From IMG/VR virus record IMGVR_UViG_648276647_000004, positions 1 through 43,461 of that record: a DNA stretch of 43,461 nt. One strand, written 5' to 3'. The stretch is from a virus (Duplodnaviria > Heunggongvirae > Uroviricota > Caudoviricetes). The position numbers are program-made. This document shows, in pieces, positions 15,001 through 18,000 of this stretch. The stretch's first letter is position 1. Each line of letters begins with the position of its first letter.

Positions 15001-18000
15001 AAAATGCTCTGTGTGCTCACTGGCTAACTGAGGCCGACGACGCGCTCAATTCTGAGTGGGTAAGCCACGGTGCAATCTGGAATAACCCACCGTACAGCAA
15101 TATCAGGCCGTGGGTGGAAAAAGCCGCTGAGCAGTGCATACAACAGCGCCAGACGGTAGTGATGCTTGTGCCAGAGGATATGTCTGTCGGATGGTTCAGC
15201 AAGGCTCTGGAGAGTGTCGACGAAGTTCGCATCATCACTGATGGACGGATTAATTTTATCGAACCATCGACAGGGCTGGAGAAGAAGGGAAACAGCAAAG
15301 GCTCCATGCTGCTGATTTGGCGACCGTTCATCAGTCCTCGACGGATGTTTACTACCGTATCCAAAGCGGCATTGATGGCGATCGGGCAGGGCGTCAGGAG
15401 GGCGGCATGAGACGACAGCGACGAAGTATCACCGACATCATCTGCGAAAACTGCAAATACCTTCCAACGAAACGCTCCAGAAATAAACGCAAGCCAATCC
15501 CAAAAGAATCTGACGTAAAAACCTTCAATTACACGGCTCACCTGTGGGATATCCGGTGGCTTAGAGAACGTGCGAGGAAAACAAGGTGATTGACCCAAAT
15601 CGAAGTTACGAACAAGGAAGTGTCGAGCGAGCTTTAACGTGCGCTAACTGCGGTCAGAAGCTGCATGTGCTGGAAGTTCACGTGTGTGAGCGTTGTATAT
15701 ATGAATGCTTAAATATGGTGGAACATAATGAGAAATATAAGCAACATAGACGAATTAAGAAATAAATTATCATATGATGATGTTTTAGGTGTACTTAGAT
15801 GGAAAGTGTCTCCTTCTAATAATGTTAAGGTTGGCAGTGTTGCTGGTTACATTAGGAGTGATGGTTATAGGATGTTAACTATCGATGGTGTAATTACTTA
15901 TGCTCACCACGTTATATGGATGATAAATAATGGTGAGATTCCATTAGGGTATAAAATTGATCATATAAATGGAGTAAGGTCAGATAATAGGCTATCTAAT
16001 CTTCGATTGGTTACACACCAACAGAATGCACAGAACCAAAAGAGAAAAATAACCAATTCGTCAGGAGTGACTGGAGTATATTTCAATAAAGAGAGATGCA
16101 AGTGGATTGCGAATATATGCGTAGATGGGCGCACCAAATATCTTGGAATATTTGCTAGCATCATTGACGCTATTGCAGAAAGGAAGAGGGCAGAAAAAGA
16201 ACTGGGTTTTCATGAAAACCATGGCAGACCATAACTGCGCAGAACTGATGAGCGATCCGAATAGCTCAATGTACGAGGAAGAAGACGATGGCTAAACCAG
16301 CGCGAAGACGATGTAAAAACGATGAATGTCGGGAATGGTTTCACCCTGCATTCGCTAATCAGTGGTGGTGCTCTCCAGAGTGTGGAACCAAGATAGCACT
16401 CGAACGACGAAGTAAAGAACGCGAAAAAGCGGAAAAAGCAGCAGAGAAGAAACGACGACGAGAGGAGCAGAAACAGAAAGATAAACTTAAGATTAGAAAA
16501 CTCGCCTTAAAGCCCCGCAGTTACTGGATTAAACAAGCCCAACAAGCCGTAAACGCCTTCATCAGAGAAAGAGACCGCGACTTACCATGTATCTCTTGCG
16601 GAACGCTCACGTCTGCTCAGTGGGATGCCGGACATTACCGGACAACTGCTGCGGCACCTCAACTCCGATTTGATGAACGCAATATTCACAAGCAATGCGT
16701 GGTGTGCAACCAGCACAAAAGCGGAAATCTCGTTCCGTATCGCGTCGAACTGATTAGCCGCATCGGGCAGGAAGCAGTAGACGAAATCGAATCAAACCAT
16801 AACCGCCATCGCTGGACTGTCGAAGAGTGCAGGGCCATCAAGGCGGAGTATCAGCAGAAACTCAAAGACCTGCGAAACAGCAGAAGTGAGGCCGCATGAC
16901 GTTCTCAGTAAAAACCATTCCAGATCACAAGGGAGAAGGCGCATGGGCATAAGAGAACTAAACCTCACCAAAGAACAGCACGAGTGGCTGAATGGCTGGC
17001 TTGAACTGTGGGGCGCATGGGTTTATTCAGGTCGTCTGGAAAAGCGCATGAGCAGCGTAATAGCTAAGTTCATGGAGAGCGTAGAGCCGGGAAGAGTTAT
17101 GACAAGGCCAATGTGTAATGATGATGATGGAATGTTGATTTCTCAGGTCGTCGATTCCGTCATGTACATTGACAAGAAAGCCTTTGGCATCCTCCTCAGC
17201 TACTACGCCCACGGCTCTTCCAAGCACGCCATTGCATCTTACTATCATCGCGTCGCAAGACCTCGCAAGATGTTATGCCGGGGCGGCGGGCGCATTCAAA
17301 AACCATCGCTCGCAACCTGTCGACGGGAAGTTGACGAAATCCTCAATGCCTCGTTGTTTATGATTTACCCGGTTCTGGATAGTGCGTTTAAAAACCGGAA
17401 ACGTGTAGAGAAAATTAAACATGTAGCATAGAACGTGTTGACATCATTGAGCAAATGAGCAACACTATTCGCATAAGCTGCCGTTAGTGACTCTTAAGTT
17501 GCAACGGTGGCTTTTTTTATTTGGGTCAGTCGTATAAAGGTCATTACGGAAGGCTGTTAACCTTCTTATCGTGGTTCGAGTCCACGCTGTCCCGCCAAAT
17601 ATGCTGGTTTAGCTCCAATGGTAGAGCAGTCGCCTTGTAAGCGAATGGGTAGCGGTTCAAGTCCGTTAACCAGCACCATAACTGAGCCGTAGCCACTGGC
17701 TATCATGAATTCATCAGTGATAGTTACGCTGCGGCCTTCTTTTTTTCCCCTTCCCAATATAAGAACTACGCAATCCGTTACTGGCGGAGGCGTTGCTATG
17801 AAATCAATGGACAAAATCTCAACTGGCATTGCCTACGGAACATCTGCTGGTAGTGCGGGATACTGGTTTTTGCAGTGGTTGGATCAGGTCAGTCCATCAC
17901 AGTGGGCTGCGATTGGGGTGCTTGGAAGCCTTGTGTTGGGCTTTCTCACCTATCTGACAAATCTGTACTTCAAAATCAGAGAAGACAGAAGAAAGGCTGC

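Follow-up and report, generated by a model that had tools for sequence, protein, structure and literature searches.

The two transfer RNA (tRNA) genes located at the 5' end of the late operon in the IMG/VR virus record IMGVR_UViG_648276647_000004 (Caudoviricetes; positions 1 to 43,461 of the record, hereafter the window) are probably both functional phage genes that belong to a small mobile cassette, in which tRNA-Thr(UGU) replaces the host thrU tRNA, as published experiments have shown, and tRNA-Asn(GUU) might plausibly have a parallel role. The pair is the long-known cassette of Escherichia phage 21, so that the feature as such is already known; both tRNAs have been annotated before, the role of tRNA-Thr against the OLD nuclease of P2 prophages has been published, and the finding itself is, in this sense, an ordinary one. 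The value of the present analysis lies in a corrected reading of the locus: the degenerate-looking tRNA-Asn is under the strongest constraint at this locus and is the anchor of every cassette variant that we found.

The tRNA pair and its conservation

In the whole window, ARAGORN identified exactly two tRNAs, both on the plus strand, and its anticodon assignments, in agreement with Rfam, are those that had been read in a first-pass annotation of this DNA, namely GUU (Asn) and UGU (Thr). The 3' CCA is genomically encoded in both genes, which are arranged as follows:

17523-17597, plus strand: tRNA-Asn(GUU), phage type; CCA encoded at 17595-17597, discriminator G73, anticodon stem GAAGG/CCUUC
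17598-17602, plus strand: 5-nt spacer between the tRNAs, AATAT (AACAT in phage 21 and in about half of the family)
17603-17678, plus strand: tRNA-Thr(UGU), identical to "tRNA-Thr21" and to the Thr(UGU) tRNA of phage HK446; CCA encoded

Against the Rfam model RF00005 (gathering score 29), tRNA-Asn scores 55.3 bits (E 2.3e-9; model positions 1-71 of 71) and tRNA-Thr 61.5 bits (E 4.7e-11); no third tRNA or tRNA remnant was detected beside the pair in 17300-17900 at E<=10. Phage 21 and HK446 have exactly the same two tRNAs (100% identity). Annotated instances of the pair are those of phage 21 (GenBank OL657228, CPT_21_64/65), Sf6, SfI and BTP1 (the BTP1 paper makes no mention of the tRNAs), and 369 of 5,426 complete E. 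coli genomes contain it. The segment 17400-17800 is 99.8% identical to phage 21, with the sole difference at spacer base 17600 (T versus C), and this match to the annotated phage 21 locus bears out the earlier placement of the pair, with the Q-dependent terminator immediately 5' of it and the lysis cassette on its 3' side.

The two irregularities that had led to the suggestion that tRNA-Asn might be a pseudogene, an acceptor-stem mismatch (U4-U69) and a 4-nt variable loop (UUAU), are both real, and there is a further mismatch in the D-stem, U13-U22, that had been overlooked. The characteristic nucleotides of the cloverleaf are intact, including U8, A14, G18-G19, U33, A37, the T-loop UUCGA and the G53-C61 pair. 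The identity elements of E. coli asparaginyl-tRNA synthetase are G34, U35, U36 and the discriminator G73; all four are present in tRNA-Asn and invariant over the family alignment. For calibration of the Rfam scores, the host asnT and thrU tRNAs yield 72.6 and 73.8 bits, respectively, and the tRNAs of phage T5 span 33 to 69 bits, among which the T5 tRNA-Asn, functional in PARIS rescue experiments, scores 55.4 bits, practically the same as its counterpart in the window.

The family was collected by a pattern scan of IMG/VR (119 loci) combined with ARAGORN, which resulted in 77 loci with the tandem pair; in 63 of these, tRNA-Asn is identical. When the 62 unique sequences of the family are compared, conservation is highest in tRNA-Asn (mean identity 99.7%, with 8 of the 75 columns variable); the corresponding values are 99.2% and 13 of 76 for tRNA-Thr, 91.9% and 52 of 65 for the homologous downstream flank, and 87% and 35 of 50 for the leader. 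Neither relaxed constraint nor flank-like substitution nor broken stems, the signs by which a pseudogene would be recognized, were found in tRNA-Asn. Its D-arm GUAU/UUAC, 4-nt variable loop and weak 4:69 pair recur in related tRNA-Asn genes of temperate Klebsiella phages, a 141-kb Klebsiella myovirus, an Erwinia jumbo phage and a T4-like coliphage, with U-G at 4:69 in the members from virulent phages and U-U in those from temperate ones. In this wider family, 9 of the 21 base pairs change on both sides and 91.8% of the cells of the alignment are paired, compared with 35-50% in slid control alignments; none of 500 shuffles reached the observed values, and the unpaired cells are restricted to 4:69 and 13:22.

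By these measures of sequence and covariation, tRNA-Asn is not a pseudogene but belongs, intact and strongly conserved, to a family of phage tRNA-Asn genes. The opposite view, that tRNA-Thr works and carries along a decaying Asn-like sequence as a passenger, can invoke the two mismatches, the short variable loop, an Rfam score about 17 bits below that of host asnT, and the report by the authors of the SfI genome, who saw no Asn codon bias and called the significance of tRNA-Asn unclear. We consider it very improbable because of the conservation of this segment, which exceeds that of any other at the locus, the sharing of the apparent defects with relatives in virulent phages, the strong covariation, the intact identity elements, U33, T-loop and CCA, the parity with T5 tRNA-Asn, and the retention of tRNA-Asn unchanged where the Thr gene has decayed, as well as at the head of four cassette variants (see below). 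The Prokaryotic Genome Annotation Pipeline also annotates both tRNA genes without a pseudogene flag.

tRNA-Thr as a nuclease-resistant substitute for host thrU

The tRNA-Thr, taken in the first-pass annotation for the canonical member of the pair, is no more canonical than tRNA-Asn and itself departs from the tRNA consensus, with C14 (position 17616) in place of the near-universal A14 and with a G27-A43 mismatch that leaves a 4-bp anticodon stem. Position 14 is U in 3 loci and A in the relative from phage P1; elsewhere in the family, the G5-C68 pair is replaced by U5-A68 in 5 loci, a compensatory change.

The Toprim tRNase OLD of P2 prophages has the host thrU tRNA, the single ACA decoder of E. 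coli, as its primary target and paired CNG motifs as its cleavage sites (Govande et al. NAR 2025, PMC12445682). The phage 21 tRNA-Thr(UGU) protects cells from P2-OLD, its Site 1 withstands cleavage almost completely in vitro, and the resistance has been attributed to C28U/G42A together with the shortened anticodon stem (PMC12445682). The Thr(UGU) tRNA of HK446 similarly provides strong counter-defence for OLD-sensitive phages (bioRxiv 10.64898/2026.07.10.737580), and protection is conferred by the phage version but not by the host's own thrU (PMC12445682; bioRxiv 10.64898/2026.07.10.737580). In the window, nucleotides 27-31 and 39-43 of tRNA-Thr are GUCGC and GCGAA, with 4 of the 5 pairs formed, and positions 28-30 and 40-42 are UCG and CGA, compared with CUG and CAG in the host. 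Thus, the CNG cleavage motif is broken by the replacement of C28-G42 with U28-A42 and the stem is shortened by G27-A43, so that all elements of the published resistance rule, the UGU anticodon, the altered CNG and the shortened anticodon stem, are found in this sequence. Thr(UGU) is also a prime target of the PARIS nuclease AriB (PMC12409363); here, tRNA-Thr has G39 and A16, and host thrU has U16, a position reported to be important for AriB recognition. We conclude that tRNA-Thr(UGU) is a nuclease-resistant stand-in for host thrU, as shown by the experiments published for the identical sequence. The Gifsy-1 nuclease HepS, for which Thr(UGU) is a secondary target, was also considered as the driver of the cassette and rejected, given that the target is merely secondary and that Asn is not listed among its substrates.

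A possible counter-defence role of tRNA-Asn

No function for the lambdoid tRNA-Asn is assigned in the literature that we found. On the basis of sequence comparison, we tentatively suggest that it might be the second arm of a two-tRNA counter-defence cassette directed against the OLD-family Toprim tRNases of P2 prophages and P4 satellites, a proposal that we regard as plausible although somewhat less than even in probability. The targets of AriB are Lys(UUU), Thr(UGU) and Asn(GUU), with U39 and U16 contributing to cleavage, and among them host tRNA-Asn(GUU) ranks as secondary, though of biological relevance (PMC12409363); PARIS also protects against lambda (PMC9122126). Furthermore, tRNA-Asn(GUU) is among the P2-OLD substrates that have been compared kinetically with ThrU. 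Host asnT contains the paired CNG motifs CGG/CCG, U39 and U16, and the tRNA-Asn of the window has AAG/CUU, C39 and A16 at the corresponding positions, so that the altered-CNG half of the rule for OLD resistance is observed in this tRNA as well. At the AriB site, U36-A-A-U39-C40|N41, the window tRNAs read UAAGCG (Thr) and UAACCU (Asn), both with A16, and the host tRNAs read UAAUCA and UAAUCC with U16, although these determinants have been mapped on tRNA-Lys alone.

The 2026 preprint on HK446 describes this phage as encoding a single tRNA, Thr(UGU) (bioRxiv 10.64898/2026.07.10.737580). We found that HK446 (NC_019714 35097-35252) carries the identical Asn and Thr pair; no tRNA is annotated in the GenBank record and the preprint counts one, and tRNA-Asn has therefore been overlooked in this phage. 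If the proposal is correct, A28-U42, C39 and the lack of U16 in tRNA-Asn would be determinants of escape rather than signs of decay, and this slot in the genome would evolve as a small arsenal against tRNases, with Asn-Thr, Asn-chimeric Thr-Gly(UCC) and Asn-Phe-Thr-Arg among its versions.

Several observations weigh against assigning this role to tRNA-Asn. The anticodon stem GAAGG/CCUUC is fully paired (5 of 5), that is, the shortened-stem half of the OLD rule is lacking; resistance requires both the CNG alteration and the shortening of the stem (PMC12445682), and tRNA-Asn has the first alone. Because of the intact stem, we do not claim tRNA-Asn as an OLD-resistant molecule. With respect to PARIS, restoration of the AriB site in T5 tRNA-Lys did not restore cleavage, so that the sequence by itself cannot decide the matter, and a cassette without tRNA-Lys(UUU), the main AriB target, could not defeat the B185 PARIS system alone. 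Any tRNA at such a distance from its host counterpart would be expected to have lost these motifs by chance, and the CNG is retained in the tRNA-Asn homologue of Klebsiella phage Mulock, where C28-G42 corresponds to A28-U42 in the window, a compensatory change of the pair. Phage P1 encodes an Asn-Thr pair of independent origin, in which the AriB motif UAAUCA is found in Asn and an intact CNG in Thr; for these reasons, we discarded the P1 pair as independent support for the escape hypothesis. It should also be taken into account that HK446 encodes, in addition, the protein inhibitor Oad2 and that lambda was not rescued by phage tRNAs (both bioRxiv 10.64898/2026.07.10.737580). Late expression may be too late against an abortive system that is triggered early, and the authors of the phage L study stated that the mode of expression of these tRNAs was not known and suggested a role in supply.

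Variants and mobility of the cassette

The right boundary of homology around the pair is sharp and lies near 17740 in 55 of 74 loci, and the left boundary is either the start of the Q21-type Q gene (~16930) or a point just before tRNA-Asn (17500-17519). The same cassette is joined to very different late modules, those of a podovirus, of a siphovirus and, in the window, of a phage with a contractile tail.

The invariant first member of four cassette variants is tRNA-Asn. In the lineage of the Salmonella phage L (locus L126, 781-852), with ST64T, ST160 and ST-87, tRNA-Asn is unchanged and is followed by a 72-nt element derived from the Thr gene, which scores 42 bits, is annotated as tRNA-Leu(UAA) and is not called by ARAGORN. 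An identical tRNA-Asn heads a cassette that consists of Asn, a chimeric Thr(UGU) and Gly(UCC), along with a canonical terminator, in six viral contigs (loci L097, L099 at 6100-6333, L111, L122, L015 and L038). The chimeric Thr, which scores 49 bits and is missed by ARAGORN, combines a lambdoid 5' half with an anticodon arm and 3' half resembling host thrU, and the substitutions G42U/U43C reduce its anticodon stem to 3 bp; the adjoining tRNA-Gly(UCC) is of the phage type. The preferred targets of OLD are reported to include both Gly(UCC) and Thr(UGU) (bioRxiv 10.64898/2026.07.10.737580). In Klebsiella phage Mulock, a close homologue of tRNA-Asn heads the array Asn-Phe-Thr-Arg.

In three of the cassette variants, the tRNA array ends before a terminator, and the terminators of the variants other than that of the window are canonical and unrelated. 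Bracketing of the array by tR' and a second stop signal is compatible with low-level transcription of the tRNAs alone in lysogens; leak-through from the constitutive promoter pR' could give rise to such a transcript.

Codon demand of the late genes

Codon counts for the late genes of the window, delineated with a simple caller of open reading frames (ORFs), were compared with those for 42 annotated E. coli coding sequences (CDS), a comparison that the first-pass annotation had suggested, and both ACA and Asn codons were found to be enriched. The ACA codon accounts for 22.0 per 1000 codons and 34.5% of the Thr codons in the late genes, compared with 5.4 per 1000 and 10.2% in the host CDS (odds ratio 4.6, p 8e-24), and Asn codons occur at 54.0 and 37.7 per 1000, respectively (p 1e-7). 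The late genes of lambda, the only phage comparator, are intermediate in ACA (11.3 per 1000) and lower in Asn (34.7 per 1000), a comparison that is confounded by GC content, which is 0.47 in the late genes of the window and 0.57 in those of lambda. The bias is thus partly compositional, and the use of ACA is very uneven among the late genes, from 1 of 30 Thr codons in the major head (capsid) gene (26191-27231) to 14 of 39 in the tail sheath gene (29447-30937); both the compositional component and the near absence of ACA from the capsid gene count against a translational need as an explanation of the pair. Nevertheless, late genes with about four times the host use of ACA can be expected to depend on the decoder of this codon. 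Codon supply and nuclease replacement are complementary because ACA-rich late genes depend on a single host tRNA that defence nucleases remove.

Alternative explanations

The principal alternative is that both tRNAs serve the AT-rich late genes only, with no part in the evasion of defence. The codon counts agree with such a function, with ACA at about 4 times and Asn codons at about 1.4 times the host level (about 2 and 1.6 times the values for lambda late genes), as do a similar ACA bias in SfI and the capsid gene of phage L, in which AAC accounts for 24 of the 25 Asn codons. As the sole role of tRNA-Thr, however, supply is contradicted by the protection given by the phage version and not by host thrU, and one and the same cassette is found with podovirus, siphovirus and contractile-tail late modules. 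Moreover, the bias tracks GC content and the capsid gene of the window barely uses ACA. Several host gene copies provide for Asn decoding, and Asn is not among the rare-codon families. We therefore consider supply alone to be unlikely, although it retains more weight than the other alternatives. An effect on RNA, in which the tRNAs and hairpins would act as RNase P and RNase E signals that separate off the late leader and define the 5' end and the stability of the lysis mRNA, decoding being secondary, could account for the invariant position directly after tR', for the hairpin 3' of tRNA-Thr that travels with the module, and for the terminators that follow the tRNA arrays in three cassette variants. 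The anticodons, discriminator bases and aminoacylation identity elements are conserved, which cleavage signals alone would not require, and rescue by tRNA-Thr requires decoding, as anticodon mutants of another rescue tRNA have demonstrated, so that we see little chance that processing is the main function.

Least probable, to the point of being nearly negligible, is compensation for integration, whereby a prophage tRNA would replace a host tRNA gene that is disrupted when the phage integrates. This explanation has been proposed for HK446 (bioRxiv 10.64898/2026.07.10.737580), and SfI and P22-like relatives do integrate into thrW. In the window, the tRNAs are located about 16 kb from the integrase gene (516-1586), within the late operon and behind a terminator, and no att-associated tRNA fragment was found; thrW encodes Thr(CGU), rather than a UGU or Asn tRNA, and is rebuilt on integration, and the cassette moves independently of integration modules. 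We dismissed this explanation on the grounds of position and anticodon.

A model for the function of the pair

Under the model that we favor, functional tRNAs with a replacement role, RNA polymerase would start at pR' and halt at tR' unless modified by Q21, as suggested by the anatomy of the locus and the literature on phage 21. In the presence of Q, transcription would continue through tR', both tRNAs, the downstream hairpin and the lysis and virion genes, and host tRNA-processing enzymes would excise the tRNAs, with CCA already encoded, from the late transcript. The released tRNA-Thr(UGU) would then take the place of host thrU, the target of P2-OLD and of PARIS AriB. The most likely role of tRNA-Asn would be to allow Asn codons to be read in the late phase of infection while the host tRNA-Asn is under attack, and supply for the Asn-rich late genes would be its second contribution.

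Comparison with known systems

The pair of phage 21 and its surroundings match those of the window in the sequence of both tRNAs, in Q (162 of 162 aa), pR', the Q-binding elements and tR', and the S21 and R21 lysis genes are 96-99% identical. The two phages differ at spacer base 17600 and in the rest of the genome, where the window has Erf-type recombination and contractile-tail virion modules. The tRNA-Thr21 and HK446 Thr(UGU) studies concern the same molecule as tRNA-Thr of the window, but neither covered the adjacent tRNA-Asn.

The Lys/Thr/Asn set with which T5 escapes PARIS AriB includes the same isoacceptors, Thr(UGU) and Asn(GUU) (PMC11464382, PMC12409363). In both systems U39 is absent, with G39 in T5 Thr, T5 Asn and the Thr of the window and C39 in the Asn of the window, and the arm GCCUUGUAAGC is common to the Thr tRNAs of T5 and the window. 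However, the sequences are not close homologues, the lambdoid cassette is without tRNA-Lys(UUU), and the T5 tRNAs come from dedicated early or middle clusters, unlike the window tRNAs that come from a late-operon leader. Another temperate enterobacterial phage, P1 (locus L128, 1425-1578), has tandem Asn and Thr genes with the same isoacceptors and order and a 2-nt spacer; both score as near-canonical, at 72.7 and 72.9 bits, with about 80% identity to the window for the Thr gene and an unrelated sequence for the Asn gene, and the pair is located outside the Q/lysis slot and does not fit the escape rules. In Shiga toxin (Stx) phages, ileZ-argN-argO are located between Q/pR' and stx; these tRNAs decode rare Ile and Arg codons and have classically been interpreted in terms of codon supply. 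Thus, the Stx-phage tRNAs are likewise found in a lambdoid late leader downstream of Q, but the isoacceptors differ.

The late leader and adjacent genes

The elements that surround the pair are the following:

16943-17431, plus strand: Q21-type late antiterminator gene, 162 of 162 aa identical to phage 21 Q (PHROG 943 'anti-termination protein Q-like', E 7e-90)
17438-17473, plus strand: predicted late promoter pR', with -35 TTGACA at 17438-17443, -10 at 17461-17466 and transcription start at 17473
17446-17461, plus strand: predicted Q-binding elements ATTGAGCA/AATGAGCA, transferred from OL657228
17475-17522, plus strand: tR', intrinsic terminator of the late leader, hairpin 17475-17513 followed by a U-run
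17686-17746, plus strand: long hairpin 17686-17735, then CUUCUUUUUUU; terminator-like here, right end of the mobile tRNA module
17798-18013, plus strand: S21 pinholin/antiholin with dual start, 70 of 71 aa identical to phage 21 S21 (PHROG holin)
18013-18510, plus strand: signal-anchor-release (SAR) endolysin R21, 160 of 166 positions identical to phage 21 (PHROG endolysin)

The coordinates of Q were carried over from the annotation of phage 21, and the positions of pR' and the Q-binding elements were predicted by transfer from the phage 21 record OL657228. The start of the feature in the first-pass annotation, 17438, is the first base of the pR' -35 hexamer. Given that a scan for consensus promoters and terminators missed pR', tR' and the downstream hairpin, RNA folding was used instead. 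The tR' element folds into a 17-bp bulged hairpin (free energy -20.2 kcal/mol, z -6.1, with 0 of 200 shuffles as good), the end of which is separated from tRNA-Asn by 9 nt; it is labelled as a terminator in the phage 21 record, which cites PMID 1704887, and our statements on tR' follow this GenBank annotation.

The downstream hairpin occupies the 60 nt 3' of tRNA-Thr, travels with the tRNA module and is kept across the family. It appears terminator-like in the window because a U-run follows; a U-run is found in the window and 17 other loci (18 of 73), and a general role of this hairpin as a terminator was ruled out on account of this limited distribution. The first gene 3' of the module encodes the S21 pinholin.

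The prophage as a whole

Taken as a whole, the window is not phage 21 but a complete mosaic lambdoid prophage genome that includes an integrase, an Erf/single-stranded DNA-binding protein/exonuclease module, a contractile-tail virion module and an O-antigen acetylase. About 20-40 complete E. coli genomes carry a prophage of the same type, at 95-98% identity. Terminase, portal, major head, tail sheath and baseplate genes lie in the virion and late region (19500-43461), for which a comparison with 50,697 sequenced phage records gave no close relative; the best match reached 12% coverage at 70% identity. The acetylase gene is located near the end of this region:

40825-42672, minus strand: O-antigen acetylase

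Compared with phage 21, the nin region of the window contains a 545-bp insertion (15690-16235). The insertion harbors an ORF (15728-16234, plus strand) whose 168-aa product has an HNH-like motif, IDHINGVRSDNRLSNLR, and may be a homing endonuclease.

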